From NCBI GenBank assembly GCA_041082215.1, contig JBDOIF010000152.1, positions 65,235-103,507 on the forward strand: a stretch of 38,273 bases of DNA, in the 5' to 3' direction. The DNA comes from Anaerolineae bacterium (GTDB lineage: Bacteria; Chloroflexota; Anaerolineae; B4-G1; DUEL01). Below are positions 12,255-20,374 of the stretch, one piece after another (the stretch's first letter is position 1; the number at the start of each line of letters is the position of its first letter). The translations under genes and the position numbers were made by a program. The notes beneath the pieces were generated by a model. It searched no databases, was not told where the DNA came from, and was given only the letters and a program-made list of their open reading frames with translations.

Positions 12255-13237
12255 CCCGGTCACCCGGTCACCCAATCACCCCATCTCTCGTCAGCATCAT
12301 CATCCCCAACCTCAACGGCGCCCATCACCTCCCCACCTGCCTGGAGAGCCTCCGTCGCCAGAGCCTCCGCGATTTCGAGGTCATCGTGGTGGATAACGGC
12401 TCCACCGACGGGTCGCTGGACCTCCTGGCTCGCGGCTACCCCGAGGTACGGGTGCTGGCCCTGGGCCAGAACCGGGGTTTTGCAGGGGCCTGCAATGCTG
12501 GCATCCGTGCTGCCCGGGGGGAGTTCATCGTCCTGCTGAACAACGACACCGAGGCCGACCCCCGCTGGCTTTTGGAGGTCGTCGCTGCCTTTGAGCGACA
12601 TCCGGAAGCGGGGATCGTCGCCTCCAGGATGCTCCTTTTCGACCGGCGGGACACCTTTCACACCGCGGGCGACTTCTACCGGGTGGACGGCGTCCCCGGC
12701 AACCGGGGGGTGTGGGAAAAGGACGAGGGCCAGTATGATGATGAGGAATATGTCTTCAGCGCCTGCGGCGGCAGTGCCGCCTACCGGCGGGAGATGCTGG
12801 ACCGGATCGGGCTGCTGGATGAGGATTTCTTCTACTCCTGTGAGGATGTGGACCTGGCCTGGCGGGCCCAACTGGCCGGGTACCGGTGCGTCTATGCGCC
12901 GCGGGCGGTGGTGTACCACAAGCTGAGCGCTACCGGTGGCGGGACCACCGCCAGTTTCTACGACGGGCGCAACTACATTTACCTCCTGGTCAAGGACTAT
13001 CCGGGCGACCTGTGGCGGACACACTGGCGAGCAATCTTGAAGGCCCAGTTCCGCCTGGCCTGGGAAGCGCTACGGTCCTGGCGGGGGGCGGCGGCACGGG
13101 CGCGGCTGCGGGGGATGATGGCCGGCCTTCTGGGCATCCCTCGCATGCTGCGGAAGCGGCGCGCCGTTCAGCAGAGCCGCCGGGTGGACCGGGACTACCT
13201 GGAGAGAGTGTTGACCGGAGTTGACGAAAGCTGTTGA
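12251..13237 (+). CDS. Glycosyltransferase family 2 (rhamnosyltransferase-like)
   Basis: VSIIIPN, VVDNGSTDGS, NRGFAGACN, LLNNDT and EDVDLAWR. ATG overlaps the rfbD stop (ATGA). Confidence 0.92.
   Translation: MTRSPGHPITPSLVSIIIPNLNGAHHLPTCLESLRRQSLRDFEVIVVDNGSTDGSLDLLARGYPEVRVLALGQNRGFAGACNAGIRAARGEFIVLLNNDTEADPRWLLEVVAAFERHPEAGIVASRMLLFDRRDTFHTAGDFYRVDGVPGNRGVWEKDEGQYDDEEYVFSACGGSAAYRREMLDRIGLLDEDFFYSCEDVDLAWRAQLAGYRCVYAPRAVVYHKLSATGGGTTASFYDGRNYIYLLVKDYPGDLWRTHWRAILKAQFRLAWEALRSWRGAAARARLRGMMAGLLGIPRMLRKRRAVQQSRRVDRDYLERVLTGVDESC
12252..12283. repeat. 8-nt tandem repeat (4 units) at the rfbD/GT2 junction
   Basis: tgacccgg tcacccgg tcacccaa tcacccca. Reverse complement of the unit at 30843-30866. 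Confidence 0.7.
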
Positions 13238-13313
13238 AGAGAGTATCATACGAACAGGGGTTGGGTGGTGGTGGCAGGTAACAGGTAGGCGAAGTCCGAT
13301 TAGAGGGGCACTG

Positions 13314-14915
13314 ATGGCAAGGGAACTGTATCTAACAGAAGAACGACAGGAACAGAGCCAGTGCCCTCTGTGCTACGAGCATGTAGACAGTAGCCTGCGG
13401 TCACATATCATTGATGTGCATGGGGAAGACGCATTTCGTCAAGCCGTATTGGCTGACAAAGAGCGTGGGATGTCTGATTCACAAATTGGTGAGCGCTACG
13501 GCATCTCCTTTGGCACCCTTGAACAAATCATCACCGAAGCTTATGGCGCTAATGTCAGTGTGCTAAAACACCCCAAGCGCATCAAACGGTGGCAGCCTCC
13601 AAACTTTCGTGAGGAGACAACGACTGTATGGAGCTTCAAGCAGCGCGGTGACTGGGCTACCCACGATGGCCGCTATCGGGGAAACTGGTCCCCCTATATT
13701 CCGCGTAATGTTATTCTCAAGTATTCTAGACCCGGGGATATTGTTCTTGATTACTTCGTGGGTGGTGGAACGACCGCGGTTGAGGCGAAGCTGCTTGGAC
13801 GTCAATGTATCGCCAGAGACATCAATCCCGGCGCGGTAGGCATAACGCTGGAGAATTTGAGATTTTCACCACCACGCCAATTTCCTGGCAATGGGGTGCA
13901 GTTGCTGTATGAACCGAAAGTGAGCATTGGAGATGCCAGAGACTTATCAGATATTTCTGATAACAGTATTGACCTGATCTGCGCTCATCCTCCTTATGCA
14001 GGCATTATCAAGTATAGTTCCAAAATTGCGGGCGACCTGTCTGGTTTGTCGGTTCAAGACTTTTTGGCGGAGATGCGTAAGGTTGCTGAGGAGAGCTTGC
14101 GCGTCCTAAGACCTGGGGGCAAGTGTGCCATTCTCATTGGAGATGCCCGCAAGTCAAAACATGTTGTGCCTATTGGCTTTAAAACCATCCGAGTCTTTCT
14201 TGATGCCGGGTTTATCCTACGAGAGCTGGTTATCAAGCGCCAACACAATTGTAAAACAACCGGCTTCTGGTACGCCCGAAGTATTCAATACAATTTCCTG
14301 CTGTTAGCGCACGAATATCTTCCCATTTTTGAGAAGCCTTTCGTAGGTCAAGTGGGAGAACGACCTACTTTGTGGGAATACGCCACCCCTCACAAGATCA
14401 CGTTGGAAAAGGTCCGCAGGGTTGAAGAAGAGAATCTGGAGACAACTACTGTTTGGATCTTCCCCAGAGAGTACTTGGAACAAGAGGTCAAACGAAACCT
14501 GATACGGCGTTTTGCCAACTATTATTATGATGAAGGAGAACTCGCTGAAGTCAGTTTGGATTGTGAGACTGAGTTCAAAAACATAGACAAACGTGTAGAT
14601 ATGGTATATGTTCGTTGGCCCCAGTATGGTGGAATGACCGAACAGAAGTTTATGGGCTATCGCGAGGCCGTGAGAAAAGTTGTCGAGCAAAGTGCACCCT
14701 GTCCAGGCGGCTTTCTCGTGTTAGAAGCGATGGATTTTCGTAGCGGAGGGATACTCTGGCCTGCTGGCTTAATTCTATATGAAGACATGTGTACCCATCA
14801 AGCCCTTTCGCTTAAAGAAATAGTTATTGTAGTACCAGAAGGGCTACCACCGGGCAACTCCGGTACAGATCTCGATATCATCCATCGCTATCTCTTGATT
14901 TACGTTCGTAAGTAA
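13314..14915 (+). CDS. DNA amino-methyltransferase (N4-C/N6-A type) with N-terminal Zn-finger/HTH and degenerate C-terminal duplicate
   Basis: TTVWSFKQRGDWATH...YRGNWSPYIPRN, motif I VLDYFVGGGTT, motif IV-like AHPPY, RVLRPGG. ATG at 13314 with AGAGGGG SD. Lower GC than flanks. Confidence 0.85.
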   Translation: MARELYLTEERQEQSQCPLCYEHVDSSLRSHIIDVHGEDAFRQAVLADKERGMSDSQIGERYGISFGTLEQIITEAYGANVSVLKHPKRIKRWQPPNFREETTTVWSFKQRGDWATHDGRYRGNWSPYIPRNVILKYSRPGDIVLDYFVGGGTTAVEAKLLGRQCIARDINPGAVGITLENLRFSPPRQFPGNGVQLLYEPKVSIGDARDLSDISDNSIDLICAHPPYAGIIKYSSKIAGDLSGLSVQDFLAEMRKVAEESLRVLRPGGKCAILIGDARKSKHVVPIGFKTIRVFLDAGFILRELVIKRQHNCKTTGFWYARSIQYNFLLLAHEYLPIFEKPFVGQVGERPTLWEYATPHKITLEKVRRVEEENLETTTVWIFPREYLEQEVKRNLIRRFANYYYDEGELAEVSLDCETEFKNIDKRVDMVYVRWPQYGGMTEQKFMGYREAVRKVVEQSAPCPGGFLVLEAMDFRSGGILWPAGLILYEDMCTHQALSLKEIVIVVPEGLPPGNSGTDLDIIHRYLLIYVRK

Positions 14916-14926
14916 GGAGACTTATA

Positions 14927-15406
14927 ATGTGGCCTGATCGTCATCCTATCTACAAAACCAGCAATGGTGTCATTGTCTATGTTTCAAAAGGCGGTAAGTC
15001 TCTATACAACTTCAAAGTCCAGTACCAAGAGCCGGGGAAAAGGGTTCGAACACCCAAACATATTCACCTTATTATTGACCTATATATGAAGCGGGCAGGA
15101 AACAGACAACTCACCCTGCAGCTTATTGACCACATTGTTGAAGGGATTATTTTGAGAGTTACACCTTCTACTTCCAATCCACCTGTTCTGCAAATCTTCT
15201 CTCCCCAACATGTGGATAGGTTTCGAGCGTTGGATGCCTACGGGGAATACTCTGTTGAGTTTCTCTTGGTGATCACCGAATTGATTACGATTCAGGAGAG
15301 AACCAATTACCCGCAGGGTGTGATGAATCTCAAACTTTTTGAGCTTTTCCGGGATGAAGCCGACATCTTTTCGGTAGTGAGTGCGGCCACTTTCAGGGGT
15401 AGATGA
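14927..15406 (+). CDS. Hypothetical protein in the methyltransferase-nuclease island
   Basis: 159-aa ORF with TAAGGAG SD immediately after the MTase stop. AT-richer codon usage; no family recognised. Confidence 0.8.
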   Translation: MWPDRHPIYKTSNGVIVYVSKGGKSLYNFKVQYQEPGKRVRTPKHIHLIIDLYMKRAGNRQLTLQLIDHIVEGIILRVTPSTSNPPVLQIFSPQHVDRFRALDAYGEYSVEFLLVITELITIQERTNYPQGVMNLKLFELFRDEADIFSVVSAATFRGR

Positions 15407-15490
15407 GGAACACAATACGGAGGTTATCTTGGCCTGAAAACCGGCTGCTCGGTTTTAGAAGATTAAGGAATCGATTCGGGATATGTGGAC

Positions 15491-15916
15491 ATGAATCCGA
15501 GAAACACAACGACAGGCACGGTTTTGGAACAAATGGTTCTTCCTGCTCTTGAACATGGCGGATACCAGTATCGAACGCAGGCCTATATAGGCCGACGCCT
15601 GGGTGGAGGCAAACACGTCATTGATGTGTTGGCTGAGGACCAGAGGGGGAAGAGGTTCTTGATCTCGCTCAAATGGCAACAGGTCTCCGGTACTGCCGAG
15701 CAGAAAGTGCCCTTCGAGGCGATGTGTCTGGCAGAGGCTGTACTATCTTCTCCGGAGAAGTATCACAAAGCATACTTGGTGCTTGGGGGCAGCGGATGGA
15801 AACTTCGCGATTTCTTCGTAGGTGGTGGCTTACGAAGCCACCTGCGCCACAGCGACTTGGTCAACATTGTGTCGCTTGAAACATTCGTTGCCTTGGCCAA
15901 TCAGGGAAAATTGTAA
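15491..15916 (+). CDS. PD-(D/E)XK-superfamily nuclease (restriction-endonuclease-like)
   Basis: G-x2-LE helix, IDVL, ISLKWQQVSGTAEQKVPFE and YLVLGGSGW. Alternative GTG start at 15485. Confidence 0.75.
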   Translation: MNPRNTTTGTVLEQMVLPALEHGGYQYRTQAYIGRRLGGGKHVIDVLAEDQRGKRFLISLKWQQVSGTAEQKVPFEAMCLAEAVLSSPEKYHKAYLVLGGSGWKLRDFFVGGGLRSHLRHSDLVNIVSLETFVALANQGKL

Positions 15917-15987
15917 ATCGCTACGTTACGAATCGAGCAAACTGTGACCGGGCTTCGGACAGGAGCTCGGATATGCCGGGAGAGCAA

Positions 15988-16016
15988 ACCTCACCCCTAC
16001 GGGTGAGGGGGTAGGG
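15988..16016. repeat. Short palindrome near the right edge of the island
   Basis: cctcaccc-ctac-gggtgagg followed by gggtagggg. Same arms as 3761-3813. Confidence 0.5.
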
Positions 16017-16052
16017 GTGAGGTCAGACGACCTGGGCTGGAGAACCACCGGG

Positions 16053-17528
16053 ATGGACAACCAGGATTTGAGCCCTTTGCTGGAACAGGCCACCGATGAG
16101 CACCCTCCTCTCCGGACCTATGCCTCGCTGCTCCTGTTCATTCTCCCCTTTCTGGGGGTACTTGCGCTGATCCATCCCTTCCTGCCCCTCTCCTTACAGC
16201 CGTTCACCCGATGGCTGGGCCTCTCTTTGGGCGGGCTTGTGCTGACAGGGCTCCTTGCCCTTCTGCTCCTTCAAATCTGGCTGAAGAGCCGCCCGGCCGG
16301 AACGGCGACCATCGGCCTCCTGGCCCTGGGATGGCTGGCCTGGGCACTTCTGACCCCCAAATCCGCCTATTCGGCGCTCCGTGGGCCTGTTGCCAGCATC
16401 CTCGCTTACATCACAGCTTTTCTCCCCCCCCTGATCATCGCCGCAGGGGCCTTCCTGGGCGGGCTGTACTTCGTTTCCGGCTATCTGCTGCCGGTGCTGG
16501 AAAAGGGCGGCCAGCGCAAAAACGCATTCAAGCTCCTCTTGGGTTATCTCGTGCGAATGAACCGCCCCTGCTGGGTCGTGACGGATGAGCCGCGGGAGGA
16601 GGACAAAATCGTCCAGCGGGTCAAGGGCGACCCTTTCACCCCCCTGCACGTCCCCGGCGTCATCATCACCGACTGCGACCACGCTGTCGCCGTCTCCGAA
16701 GGGGTGAAGTTCAAAGGTGTGAAGGGGCCCGGCGTCGTCTTTACCGACTTCGGCGATCAGCCCCTCCGATCGCTGGACCTGCGCCCTCAATTGCGGACCT
16801 CCACCGCATTCGGGCGGACACAGGATGGGATTGAGGTCAAGGTGCTCTTCTTCGTCCCCTTCCAGATCAACCCAGGAGGACAGAAACCCCAACTGGGCGC
16901 GCCGTTCCCCTTCCAGAAACGGGCGGCGGCGGACGCCGTCCGCGCGCAGAAGGTGGAACACCCCAGCAAGGGAGGGGAGGCGATCAGCCAGCGGTCCTGG
17001 GACGAGTTGCCGGTTCTCATCGGCACGCGGGTGATGCAGGACATCCTCTCCCGTTACCGCTTCGACGAACTCTACGAGCCGTTCGACGCGGGGGGAGAAC
17101 CACCGCGCGTGCGCATCGCCAAAGAGTTCCTGGAGGAGCTCGACAAGGAATTACGACCGCTGGGAATTCAGCGCGTCGGCGGAGGGATCAGCAACCTTCT
17201 CCCGGCCGACGAGGCGGTGCTGAAACAGCGGGTACGGAGCTGGCAGGCCGACTGGGTGCGCCGGGTGGCGCTCGAAAAGGCTAAGAGTCAGGCGGAATGG
17301 CTGCGGCGCATCGAGCAGGCGCGGGCAGAGGCCTGGGCTGACCTGATTATGACGCTGGGTGAACGACTGGCGGACCTGGACCGACAGGGTGTCAGCGTTG
17401 TGCCGGAGCGGGTGGTCTCCCAGTTTCTGGAAATCCTTGAGGAGCTTGCAATGCGGCCATCGCTGAGGCGATACCTCCCGCGGGACGCCGCCCAGGAAGT
17501 CCATCGGATGCGAGAGGGCCTGGACTAG
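16053..17528 (+). CDS. Multi-pass membrane protein with SPFH/band-7-like domain
   Basis: About 4 N-terminal hydrophobic helices, then GPG, DLRPQLR, RTQDGIEVKV...FQI, LGIQRV and an Ala/Glu-rich coiled-coil (WQADW...EQARAEA). ATG at 16053 with GGAG SD. Confidence 0.78.
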   Translation: MDNQDLSPLLEQATDEHPPLRTYASLLLFILPFLGVLALIHPFLPLSLQPFTRWLGLSLGGLVLTGLLALLLLQIWLKSRPAGTATIGLLALGWLAWALLTPKSAYSALRGPVASILAYITAFLPPLIIAAGAFLGGLYFVSGYLLPVLEKGGQRKNAFKLLLGYLVRMNRPCWVVTDEPREEDKIVQRVKGDPFTPLHVPGVIITDCDHAVAVSEGVKFKGVKGPGVVFTDFGDQPLRSLDLRPQLRTSTAFGRTQDGIEVKVLFFVPFQINPGGQKPQLGAPFPFQKRAAADAVRAQKVEHPSKGGEAISQRSWDELPVLIGTRVMQDILSRYRFDELYEPFDAGGEPPRVRIAKEFLEELDKELRPLGIQRVGGGISNLLPADEAVLKQRVRSWQADWVRRVALEKAKSQAEWLRRIEQARAEAWADLIMTLGERLADLDRQGVSVVPERVVSQFLEILEELAMRPSLRRYLPRDAAQEVHRMREGLD

Positions 17529-17546: not shown

Positions 17547-19397
17547 ATGCCGATCAAGTATATCTGGCAACACCTCAAACGCCTGCTCCCGCTCCTCGGC
17601 TCCTGCCTGGTGGCCGTCACGGTGCTGGGCCTGGCGCTCGCCAGAGGGCTGGAAGGAGGCCCCGCTGTCAATCGGCTGCGGGTCGAGTGCATAGGAGACT
17701 CCCTCCGGTTCTACGTCAACGACCGTCTGGTGAGCGAAGGGTCGGACCCCACATTTGCTGAAGGGGATGTCGCGCTGGTCGTCCTGGCCCCGGCTACCGG
17801 CGTGGACTCGGCAGCCTATTTCGATGAGCTGACCATCGCCCAGCCCGACGGCAAGATTCTCTTCGAGGATAACTTCAGGAACCCGGCTTCCGGCTGGTCC
17901 ACCTACGCCACGGCCGATGGGACGGCGGCTTATGCCAGGGGGAGGTTCCGCCTGGTCGGCCACGGAACCGGTGTGGCCCTGTTCAGCCAGTCCGGACGGC
18001 GCTTTCAGGATGCGACCATCACCGTGACGGTCCGCTCCGCCGGTGGGAGCCGGGCTGCCTGGGTGGGGGTGGCCTGCCGGTACGCCGATCGCGGCAACAC
18101 CTATCTTTTCCTCGTCAACCGGCACGGCGAGTACAGGGTGGCCCGTCTGCTGAACGGGGAGTCGGTGCTGCTGGGAGGACCCGCCCGGTCTGATGCGATC
18201 CACACCGGCCCGACGGACAGCCCGCTGGTCCATGTCGCGCTGGCAGCCCTGGCCGTGGCCCCCGTCCTCCTGGCGCTGGTCGCCGTCCCCTACACTGCCG
18301 CCCGCTTCCTGCGCGATCTCTACAACATCCACTCACTGGAAGAGGCGTACACCTTCCTGAGCCGGCTCCTCTTCGGATCACTGGCATTTGCCCCCTTTCT
18401 TTTAATCAAGGAGGGGAAAATCGCTGGCGGCAACGGAAGCGTCCTCCATCGGGTCGGTGGGCCGGGCTATCTGGTCATCTATAACGATACCGCTGTCATC
18501 ACCGAGCGGGGCGGCCGTCTGCAACGGCTGTTGGGGACCGGTTTCCCCCTCCTGGAGCGGTTCGAAAAGGTCTGGGAGGTCATAGACCTGCGGCCCCAGC
18601 GATGGGTGTATGAAGTAAGTGCCATGACCCGCGACGGCATCCCGGTGGTCTGTGAGGCGGACGTCAGTTTCCAGATAGATAATCGGGTCCCGGACGGATC
18701 AGGGGGCCTCCAGGCCAAACAGCCCACCGATAAGGAACCCTACCCCTATGCCCCCGATGCGGTCTTCCGTGCTGCCACCAGCCGCTGGATCCGGGACCCC
18801 GATTGGAAAGGGCCGCCGATGGACTGGGCCGGGCGGGTGGTGGTCGGCTTCACCGAAGGCATCCTGCGCAACATTCTGGCAGAGTATCGGCTGGACTGGC
18901 TGATCGCCCCTGCTGGGTCGGACGGCCGGATCCCCCGTGAGGTGATCCGTGAGCGGCTGGAACAACAGCTACGGGAGGCAGCTCAAAAGGTTGGGGCCCG
19001 GATCCTCCGTGTGCACCTGGGGGAGATCCGGGTAAAGGACGAGGGGATCTCCCATCAATGGCTCGAGGCCTGGCAGGCGGAGTGGGAGAGCCGCGCCCTC
19101 GCTACCCGGGTGGAAGGGGAGGCGGAACTCCTGCGAATGGACTCCGCCCGCATACAGGCCCAGGCGGAGATGGTCATCACCCTGATCCAGGCCCTTCAAT
19201 CCGTCGTCGCCAGCGAGGCGGAGCTCAAGCCCTACCTGCTGGCGACGCGCTTCGTCGAGGCGCTGCGCTGGATGTCCTACGACCCCACCGCCCGGGCCTT
19301 CATGCCCCCTGAGGCCCTCCAGACCCTCAGGCGGCTCCAGGAAGCGATGGGCACGGAGGGGTCGCCCTCAGGTCCACAGCCTGGAGAAGAAAGATGA
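17547..19397 (+). CDS. Membrane protein with beta-sandwich (DUF1080/ConA-like) ectodomain and SPFH/band-7-like domain
   Basis: TM, beta-rich loop, TM, then GGPG, IDLRPQ, MTRDGIPVVCEADVSFQID, GARILRVHL and WQAEW...EGEAE...ARIQAQAEM. GAGGAG SD. Confidence 0.8.
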   Translation: MPIKYIWQHLKRLLPLLGSCLVAVTVLGLALARGLEGGPAVNRLRVECIGDSLRFYVNDRLVSEGSDPTFAEGDVALVVLAPATGVDSAAYFDELTIAQPDGKILFEDNFRNPASGWSTYATADGTAAYARGRFRLVGHGTGVALFSQSGRRFQDATITVTVRSAGGSRAAWVGVACRYADRGNTYLFLVNRHGEYRVARLLNGESVLLGGPARSDAIHTGPTDSPLVHVALAALAVAPVLLALVAVPYTAARFLRDLYNIHSLEEAYTFLSRLLFGSLAFAPFLLIKEGKIAGGNGSVLHRVGGPGYLVIYNDTAVITERGGRLQRLLGTGFPLLERFEKVWEVIDLRPQRWVYEVSAMTRDGIPVVCEADVSFQIDNRVPDGSGGLQAKQPTDKEPYPYAPDAVFRAATSRWIRDPDWKGPPMDWAGRVVVGFTEGILRNILAEYRLDWLIAPAGSDGRIPREVIRERLEQQLREAAQKVGARILRVHLGEIRVKDEGISHQWLEAWQAEWESRALATRVEGEAELLRMDSARIQAQAEMVITLIQALQSVVASEAELKPYLLATRFVEALRWMSYDPTARAFMPPEALQTLRRLQEAMGTEGSPSGPQPGEER

Positions 19398-20374
19398 TCT
19401 TCCTTACGGCCGATCTCAACCCGTCCGCCCTTTTTTATCACCGGGAGCCGTCGGATTTTGCCCGTCGGCTGCTGGAGAGGGCGGAGCAGCGTCGGAGGGC
19501 GGGCGAGCTGAGGGAAGCCGAGCTGTATGCCCACCAGGCCCGGCAGCACAGCCAGGAGGCCCGGGCTTACATAGACCATGCCGCATCCCTGATCCTTCTG
19601 AGCGACATCTACCGTGAAATGGGAAAGCCGGGCCCCGCTCTTCGAAGCGCCCGTGAGGCCTACGAGGTCCTTCAACGGCAGCCCGGCCTCGACCAGCGGC
19701 ACAATGAGGCGGTCGCTGCCTACAATCTGGGGCTGATCCATCACCTCCTGGGTAACGACGTGGAGGCGCTGAACTGGTACCAGAACGCACGCCAGATGCT
19801 GGACCTGGCCCGGGAACACTGGGCTGCCCAGAAGGAATTATCCCTCATGAACGCCTGTCAGCGGCTGAGCCGCTGGGTTGCCGAGCTGAGCAAGAGCCTG
19901 AGCCACGAGGAGGGACGAGGGGGGCTCCACTTCTCCCTGATCCTCCCTGCTCGACTGATGGGGAGCAAAGATGGACAGCTTTCGGTGGCGAAGCTGAAAC
20001 TGGATGGTCTCCTCCCCGAGCCTAACCTGAGGATCGGCGACCGCACCTTTGAGCTCCATCCCTTCCCCGGTAAACCGGCCGTGGTCCACCCGGGAGAGTC
20101 CTATTTGATCTTCGAGATCCCCGAACAGATCGGCTCCCGATTCGGCGCCCGCAGGGGGGACTGTATCCTGGCGCGGCGGGTGAGCGATTGGGGCACGGGA
20201 GGGGGGTATTATCTGCTCAACGGGGCTGCCGGGCTGGACGTGGGCCAGTTCCTCCGCGACGAGACGGGCAAGGTCTCCTTTCGGAGTCTGATCACCGGGC
20301 GGATCATTGGGGGGATAGAGGGAGGCGATTTTTCTGTGTACGATCCCCTCGCCCTTCTCAGACCTATTGGTTAG
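19394..20374 (+). CDS. TPR-repeat protein with C-terminal beta domain (possibly degenerate S24/LexA-like)
   Basis: TPR helices AASLILLSDIYREMGKPGPAL and AVAAYNLGLIHHLLGNDVEALNWYQNA. ATG overlaps the upstream stop (ATGA). Confidence 0.8.
   Translation: MIFLTADLNPSALFYHREPSDFARRLLERAEQRRRAGELREAELYAHQARQHSQEARAYIDHAASLILLSDIYREMGKPGPALRSAREAYEVLQRQPGLDQRHNEAVAAYNLGLIHHLLGNDVEALNWYQNARQMLDLAREHWAAQKELSLMNACQRLSRWVAELSKSLSHEEGRGGLHFSLILPARLMGSKDGQLSVAKLKLDGLLPEPNLRIGDRTFELHPFPGKPAVVHPGESYLIFEIPEQIGSRFGARRGDCILARRVSDWGTGGGYYLLNGAAGLDVGQFLRDETGKVSFRSLITGRIIGGIEGGDFSVYDPLALLRPIG

Follow-up and report, generated by a model that had tools for sequence, protein, structure and literature searches.

Circular permutation of concanavalin A (ConA)-like folds is already known from ConA itself and from engineered glucanases, and the lichenase of Fibrobacter is also a natural permutant. 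Domain insertion is common in proteins, and SPFH proteins form large rings. The classic case of circular permutation is ConA as compared with other legume lectins such as favin and pea lectin (PMC3320104), and the "permutation by duplication" model outlined in the same source requires in-frame tandem copies of a domain as its precursor. Here, we describe P0001, a 616-residue SPFH protein encoded in a stretch of 38,273 nucleotides from an Anaerolineae bacterium (GenBank assembly GCA_041082215.1, contig JBDOIF010000152.1, positions 65,235 to 103,507 of the forward strand), which is called the window. Between the two transmembrane (TM) helices of P0001 lies an ectodomain of 180 aa (17670..18209, residues 42–221). 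The gene itself encodes this stretch as a circular permutant of a β-sandwich of the ConA type, with the native C-terminal third placed first. The titles and abstracts of the literature searched contained neither a gene-encoded permutant of the DUF1080/CBM66-like family nor an SPFH protein whose hairpin loop bears a folded ectodomain, and passages of the CIRPIN paper (PMC13552848) make no mention of SPFH or transmembrane cases.

Segment order in the ectodomain and in its relatives

The first-pass annotation of this DNA had read the ectodomain as an apparently circularly permuted DUF1080/ConA-like β-sandwich, with its native termini fused, its chain reopened in the loop between SDAIHTG and NRLRVEC, and both new ends running into TM helices of an SPFH protein. 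The translation of 17547..19394 contained the motifs that it quoted, at the place and in the order given: residues 42–97 (segment 1) hold NRLRVECIGDSLRFYVNDRLV...GDVAL...YFDELTI, and residues 104–221 (segment 2) hold ILFEDNF..PASGW...FQDATITV...GVACRY...YLFLV...GEY...SDAIHTG. The ectodomain had an insignificant match to Pfam family PF06439 (E 0.019, 15.4 bits, cut-off 26.8), in which its first 31 residues aligned with positions 128–158 of the 187 in the profile. The fit of this N-terminal piece to the C-terminal part of PF06439 was the first pointer to a swap.

The relatives of the domain were collected by an exhaustive HMMER search with residues 34–226 at E ≤ 0.001, which returned 3,153 proteins, and the best 150 of them were re-scored and analysed, taking query positions 9–70 as segment 1 and 71–188 as segment 2. 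The order 2-1 was found in 39 of these 150 proteins, 2-12-1 in another 39, 2-1-2-1 in 11 and 2-12-12-1 in nine, besides rarer mixtures. Therefore, the unit of the family is segment 2 followed by segment 1. The order seen in P0001 occurred otherwise only across the junctions of tandem units, and the only free-standing "12" unit among the 150 relatives was P0003, a 614-aa orthologue with the same TM-ectodomain-TM-SPFH layout that is 66% identical to P0001 and was matched in one stretch (residues 37–220). Thirty-six of the 150 start with segment 1 or finish with segment 2. Two of these 36 have no initial Met and start inside the domain, as fragments; most others have flanks of at least 37 residues before or 58–81 residues after the match, which is space for the unmatched half, and the few with shorter flanks look truncated. 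The genome of the bacterium itself has a 774-codon frame on contig C65 that reads segment 2, segments 1 and 2, then segment 1; contigs C84 and C152 carry segment 2 followed by segment 1, and C101 alternates.

The consensus of 26 single-domain relatives (LFxDDFSxPxSGW ... GVICRYQD ... SxAIxxGxAxNHLRAxCxG ... FDNFxVxxP) together with the 39 proteins of 2-1 order bears out the usual order that the first-pass annotation gave for this family, which is the reverse of that in P0001. The N-terminus of these 26 relatives is hydrophobic and has a Cys at position 20 that hardly varies, resembling a lipoprotein signal, and the domain family is frequent in the relatives of the bacterium as predicted lipoproteins and in in-frame tandem arrays. 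A word-indexed protein search with residues 30–260 returned the query alone and missed the 66%-identical P0003. The same search with the SPFH region as query did find P0003.

A canonical profile of 192 positions was built from the 39 single-domain (2-1) relatives. The two halves of the ectodomain matched its C- and N-terminal parts in swapped order, as the permutation predicts: residues 34–100 of P0001 aligned with positions 127–192 (55.4 bits) and residues 99–223 with positions 7–133 (116.4 bits). The profile is thus covered once by P0001, with about seven positions (127–133) matched at both ends. Because these doubly matched positions sit around SDAIxxG, the cut site is the SDAIxxG / NxLRxxC loop, which is where the chain had been proposed to reopen. 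When the segments of the ectodomain were re-ordered in a script, they gave one match of 180.7 bits over positions 10–192, as expected for an in silico swap of a permutant, whereas the unswapped ectodomain gave two matches of 52.2 and 118.8 bits in the same test. Out of 20 shuffles of the ectodomain, 10 gave matches of at most 0.8 bits and the other 10 gave none. P0003 showed the same swapped pattern (59.8 and 75.5 bits), and its second match begins at profile position 20 since nine residues over the native first strand are absent. A collinear full-length match to a known domain was not found for the ectodomain, the Pfam match being limited to 31 residues and the canonical profile matching in swapped order.

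When 10 canonical or tandem relatives were scanned with PF06439, three passed (32.6, 35.1, and 37.7 bits), three were under the threshold and four had no match. Those that passed are collinear with the profile; in P0050, for example, residues 46–212 aligned with positions 8–184 of 187. A profile of the canonical form matched the CBM66 of Bacillus levanase in the PDB (4b1l, 4azz, 4b1m) with an E value of 1e-8 over about 120 residues and had weak matches to DUF1080 structures. On these mixed PF06439 scores and structure matches, the domain family is a distant branch of the DUF1080 (PF06439)/CBM66 part of the ConA-like superfamily and not a clear member of PF06439. The DUF1080/ConA-like label of the first-pass annotation was therefore about right at the clan level, with the ectodomain itself falling under the PF06439 threshold.

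Predicted structure of the ectodomain

The structure of residues 34–226 was predicted with AlphaFold2 from an alignment of 31 rows, made up of the orthologue and junction pieces of tandem relatives. The model is one compact all-β domain of 14 strands with a mean predicted local distance difference test (pLDDT) of 94.8 and a predicted template modelling score (pTM) of 0.91, and all five models were concordant (pLDDT 93.8–94.8, pTM 0.91). A single domain was thus obtained in place of the two independent half-domains that a truncated tandem duplication could have left. P0050 was modelled as the canonical control (pLDDT 93.2, pTM 0.82). The first five strands of the permuted model are the last five of the control, and its remaining nine are the first nine or ten of the control. 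The closure AQPDGK was modelled as a hairpin, with loop 66–70 between strands E55–65 and E71–75 in blocks of pLDDT 96–98, and it has the position and length of the inter-domain linkers in tandem relatives.

The PDB was searched by structure with two sequence-order-dependent aligners, Foldseek and VIA-align, the latter against 48,161 chains. The best Foldseek matches of the permuted model were engineered circularly permuted glucanases (1ajo, E 1.2e-5, and 1ajk), followed by ConA-type lectins. In VIA-align, 1ajo_B gave a Z of 13.6 (rmsd 3.4 Å, 162 aligned, model residues 6–171) and the Dioclea lectin 2jdz a Z of 9.3 (145 aligned), and only three of the 48,161 chains reached a Z of 8. As 1ajo is the best match, the strand order of the model is that of a jelly roll whose chain has been opened near the same point. 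Chains of canonical order aligned only with residues 60/68–189 of the permuted model (4b1m Z 6.9, 4jqt 5.9, 3hbk 4.5, 3imm 4.2), and a few GH16 chains aligned with residues 3–110 only. With the control model, 266 chains reached a Z of 8, many superfamily members scored a Z of 14–21, and the full-length alignments included 4b1m (Z 21.3, 156 aligned), 4jqt (19.2), and 3imm (16.1). In its predicted structure, the ectodomain is a jelly-roll β-sandwich of the ConA-like lectin/glucanase superfamily with permuted connectivity. The first-pass annotation proposed that the permutation lets the domain sit as a loop between the two TM helices. However, the native termini are adjacent in the model and six residues close the hairpin, so an unpermuted domain could probably sit in the hairpin loop too. 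The permutation may just be a record of how the piece was acquired.

Host gene and the site of insertion

P0001 is encoded in a single uninterrupted frame of 616 codons, and its start codon is supported by the motif MPIKYIWQHLKR, which aligns with the starts of the orthologues (M..PKWAxRHLKR). The features of the gene and of its neighbours are given in Table 1. The Kyte–Doolittle hydropathy in a 19-residue window peaks at residues 10–35 and at residues 224–255, and both new ends of the ectodomain do run into these helices. The annotation of the host as an SPFH protein was likewise upheld by PF01145 (SPFH/Band_7), which matched P0001 in two stretches with an E value of 2.7e-10 and 41 bits (cut-off 23.6) and P0003 with 44.4 bits. 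Some database sources label the SPFH homologues of P0001 as "SPFH domain-containing protein", and the closest sequence match of its SPFH part in the PDB was QmcA (E 0.21). A third, weaker hydrophobic stretch (FLSRLLFGSLAFAPFLLIK, residues 269–287, window 18351–18407, score 1.75) follows TM2 and is kept in the orthologues. This stretch may be a part of the SPFH domain that is embedded in the membrane or lies at its interface.

Table 1. Positions of the features of the P0001 gene and of the adjacent genes in the window
Feature	Position	Strand	Basis
P0001, whole gene (616 aa): N-terminal tail, TM1, permuted ectodomain, TM2, SPFH domain	17547..19397	+	open reading frame list and translation
TM helix 1 (TM1), about residues 13–32	17583..17642	+	hydropathy peak 2.38; charge counts; kept in 19 homologues
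Segment 1, residues 42–97, contains Cys48	17670..17837	+	matches C-terminal third of canonical profile
Closure AQPDGK (six residues, 98–103), native C-terminal strand to native N-terminal strand	17838..17855	+	loop in the model
Segment 2, residues 104–221, contains Cys177	17856..18209	+	matches N-terminal two thirds of canonical profile
TM helix 2 (TM2), about residues 227–249	18225..18293	+	hydropathy peak 2.62; aligns with TM2 of insert-free homologues
SPFH/Band_7 region, probably cytoplasmic, with coiled C-terminal part	18294..19394	+	PF01145 match; orthologues 58–69% identity
Paralogue P0002 (503 aa), upstream of P0001, with several TM helices and a divergent SPFH-like region	16017..17528	+	weak Band_7 match (E 0.026); TM segments from hydropathy
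Downstream tetratricopeptide repeat (TPR) protein	19394..20374	+	TPR_12 E 6.8e-9

The SPFH part (residues 226–616) has orthologues of 58–69% identity in the same taxonomic family, and 11 orthologous loci were fetched, one of which was cut by a contig end. The 10 orthologues with an intact N-terminus all read M..PKWAxRHLKR, TM1, a loop of 4–14 residues, TM2 and FLxxLYxI. When nine more distant homologues were added, the loop between TM1 and TM2 was about 4–50 residues in 18 of the 19. In the alignment, the host loop is kept on either side of the insert, as ARGLEGG/PAV... and ...HTG/PTDSPL (the slash marking the border) against AQGGKPTNPL in orthologues. Among the best 120 of 155 SPFH homologues from a database of 5.8 billion clusters, no protein other than P0001 and P0003 is longer than 521 aa; each of the two has the other as its nearest relative, at 80% identity, the next having 69–70%, and the source names of the homologues are Anaerolineae or Chloroflexota. 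The domain family occurs in 52 of 60 related genomes, and among the matches listed for these genomes none spans the domain together with the flanking helices. Because 18 of the 19 homologues have a short loop only, the domain is an insertion into a conserved two-helix hairpin, and it is confined to one small clade consisting of P0001 and the P0003 cluster. As only these nearest relatives carry the long form, there was a single insertion event on the branch to their lineages.

The nineteenth homologue, a more distant SPFH paralogue with 36–38% identity (genome G053, contig C196, L037:344-1063), has a different insert of about 170 residues, apparently β-rich, between its TM helices. Pfam gave no significant match for this insert, which does not resemble the ConA-like unit either. 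It is conceivable, although unlikely, that the external loop of the Chloroflexota SPFH hairpin is a recurrent landing site for folded ectodomains, with at least two unrelated inserts. If this were the case, the inserts would couple an outside ligand or an attachment to the envelope with the cytoplasmic SPFH cage, the permutation would have been kept since anchoring by the SDAIxxG loop, and not by the native termini, points the binding face off the membrane, and the insert would be a natural proof that the hairpin fully crosses the membrane.

Conservation of the insert

Between P0001 and P0003, the identity is 70% for segment 1, 59% for segment 2 and 78% for the SPFH part. The P0003 cluster, formed at 90% identity, has four members of 614 aa from separate assemblies. 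Its three other members differ from P0003 at 14–16 positions, of which 10–11 are within the 180 residues of the ectodomain. A pair of cysteines that is nearly invariant in the family (Cys48 and Cys177 in P0001) is kept in all four 614-aa variants. The DNA encoding the relatives was looked for in genome and metagenome contigs and none was found. We read these protein comparisons as suggestive of purifying selection on an ectodomain that changes faster than the rest; faster change is common in exposed domains. The nine residues absent in P0003 indicate that the hairpin of the old termini was trimmed in one lineage.

Origin of the permuted unit

The permuted unit would have arisen as a one-unit piece that was excised out of register where the domain is repeated in tandem, as in "permutation by duplication". 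Its entry into the hairpin loop would have been either a single step, with the piece already permuted, or the arrival of a tandem pair that was then trimmed. In-frame tandem arrays, which are the precursor state of the model, are abundant in the family, including in the same genome, and an out-of-register window of one unit taken from such an array would give exactly the order of P0001. In a search for the donor, both halves had their best or near-best match in one single-domain protein of another genome of the same taxonomic family (G008; 81.1 and 41.7 bits). Direct repeats at the borders of the insertion were found neither at 17646 nor at 18225, and the insert does not stand out in base composition (GC 0.67 vs 0.65). 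A 33-nt direct repeat of 79% identity was observed at 17767–17799 and 18232–18264, encoding GDVALVVLAPAT in segment 1 and HVALAALAVAP in TM2; it is probably due to chance in GC-rich Ala, Val and Leu codons.

Topology, neighbouring genes and possible function

The N-terminal tail has three K/R and no acidic residue, two R stand right after TM2, and the flanks of the ectodomain are neutral to acidic. Based on this charge distribution, with which the export signals of the relatives agree, the N-terminus and the SPFH domain are both probably cytoplasmic and the ectodomain is probably on the outside. A folded domain of 180 residues with a conserved cysteine pair at the hairpin tip implies that, in this SPFH family, the hairpin crosses the membrane and does not merely dip into it.

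The start of the downstream TPR gene overlaps the stop of the P0001 gene (ATGA). Its product has repeats in the N-terminal part and a C-terminal part of about 150 residues without a Pfam match, and it lies downstream in 10 of the 10 orthologous loci. A homologue of P0002 lies upstream in all 10 as well, and adjacent second matches recur across the relatives. The three genes (P0002, P0001, and the TPR protein) thus form a unit that is conserved in 10 of the 10 loci. The conserved adjacency of P0002 and P0001 suggests that the two proteins likely form a mixed SPFH oligomer. As the nearest solved relatives are CBM66 and DUF1080, the ectodomain might bind a glycan or another component of the envelope, a suggestion that we make tentatively and put somewhat below even odds. 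Such binding would connect the SPFH oligomer in the cytoplasm with a site beyond the membrane. PADLOC had no match for the three proteins of the operon, and NCBIfam gave nothing useful.

Upstream of the SPFH operon, the window has a low-GC stretch at 13221–16000, with a GC of 0.48 at 14001–16000 vs about 0.65 elsewhere. Its genes encode an N6_N4 DNA methylase (13221..14915) and a 159-aa open reading frame without a Pfam match (14927..15406), and it is possibly a horizontally acquired remnant of a restriction-modification system.

Alternative explanations

The explanation as a whole, namely, a permuted ConA-like unit of out-of-register origin that was inserted into the SPFH hairpin, lies outside the membrane and may bind a glycan or the envelope, is given a confidence of about 0.82. 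A number of observations weigh against it. The PF06439 match of P0001 itself, being insignificant at 15.4 vs 26.8 bits, is weak direct evidence for the family. Most of the AlphaFold alignment was made up of pieces from the junctions of tandem proteins, and AlphaFold would join complementary halves regardless of how the protein folds in the cell, the fold being a predicted one. The ectodomain changes faster than the rest of the protein, which could mean relaxed constraint, and P0003 is without nine residues spanning the native first strand ILFEDNF (about 100–110 in P0003 vs window 17847–17885). An intermediate in the form of an SPFH protein that carries a canonical or tandem insert was not seen, and no donor junction stands out, the tandem proteins scoring only slightly lower than the best donor. 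Finally, the topology was read from hydropathy and charge only, and glycan binding from nothing else than structural resemblance.

Some of these points would also suit a decaying remnant of a truncated tandem duplication, in which the halves of two domains do not co-fold and have no function. A C-terminal third followed by N-terminal two thirds is what spans each tandem junction, and both the faster change of the ectodomain than of the SPFH part and the loss of the native first strand in P0003 could be signs of decay. However, the pieces of P0001 sum to one full profile (7–133 and 127–192) with no spare halves, P0001 and the 66%-identical P0003 keep 59–70% identity, the frame and the Cys pair, and five AlphaFold models concur on one domain (pLDDT 93.8–94.8, pTM 0.91), which makes such a remnant very unlikely. 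The same two halves could instead complement each other between molecules, segment 1 of one SPFH subunit completing segment 2 of its neighbour in a domain-swapped ring. SPFH rings are known in general, with QmcA as the nearest solved chain at an E value of only 0.21, and a prediction made on a single chain is blind to swapping; against this, the six residues of the closure form a tight hairpin in the model at pLDDT 96–98 and one chain is the simplest solution, and we consider the swapped arrangement quite unlikely. The genome is a draft of 174 contigs, which leaves room for an artefact of assembly or gene calling such as a chimeric contig or a fused open reading frame, but the frame of 616 codons is uninterrupted, the same architecture recurs at 66% identity in a separate cluster, whose four 614-aa members come from other assemblies, and the flanking genes are syntenic with those of the relatives, so that an artefact is hardly credible. 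Equally remote is the idea that the ectodomain, which has no significant Pfam match, is an unrecognised collinear domain with a coincidental, swapped resemblance to DUF1080. The halves match complementary parts of the profile with 55 and 116 bits, the 20 shuffles gave at most 0.8 bits or no match, and the family has 3,153 members at E ≤ 0.001; coincidence was ruled out by the swapped profile matches together with the shuffle control.

Comparison with known systems

With the permuted and inserted unit as the preferred explanation, most stages of its history are visible together: the canonical form and the tandem arrays in the same genome, the insert-free host gene in sister genomes and the finished permutant in two lineages. 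P0001 is therefore a test case for permutation-aware search tools, as Pfam and sequential structure aligners nearly miss its ectodomain, and also for ideas on how domains enter the loops of membrane proteins. It further suggests that SPFH proteins equipped with an extracellular module form a class that has not been studied.

ConA and the lectins of Diocleinae share the superfamily fold with the ectodomain, and the Dioclea lectin 2jdz was its second-best structural match (Z 9.3). ConA, however, is permuted post-translationally by cleavage and re-ligation, whereas P0001 is permuted in the gene. The cut site also differs, as is seen from the offset of the alignment (model 4–174 to chain 45–239), and ConA is a soluble seed lectin while the ectodomain of P0001 is an insert in a membrane loop. 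The engineered permutants of Bacillus 1,3-1,4-β-glucanase (1ajo CPA16M-127, 1ajk, 1cpn) are the best structural match, but these are man-made variants of a GH16 enzyme and are 11% identical in sequence to the ectodomain, and the match implies no catalytic kinship. Among solved structures, CBM66 (SacC levanase; 4b1m, 4b1l, 4azz) and DUF1080/PF06439 (4jqt, 3imm, 3hbk) come closest to the canonical form; they have the canonical strand order and align with segment 2 of P0001 only (Z 6.9 for CBM66, 5.9 and 4.2 for DUF1080).

The families attributed to "permutation by duplication", such as saposin/swaposin and the DNA methyltransferases, share with the proposed origin of P0001 the precursor of tandem copies (PMC3320104). 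Unlike in these families, the ends of the P0001 unit did not come from new start and stop codons, and the unit lies inside another gene between TM helices. On the side of the host, stomatin, flotillin, QmcA, and HflK/C share with P0001 a Band_7 domain and an N-terminal membrane anchor, and the conserved adjacent pair of P0001 and P0002 is reminiscent of HflK/HflC. In comparison with these known SPFH proteins, P0001 is very divergent (QmcA E 0.21), and its hairpin loop bears an ectodomain of 180 residues that is predicted to be folded.

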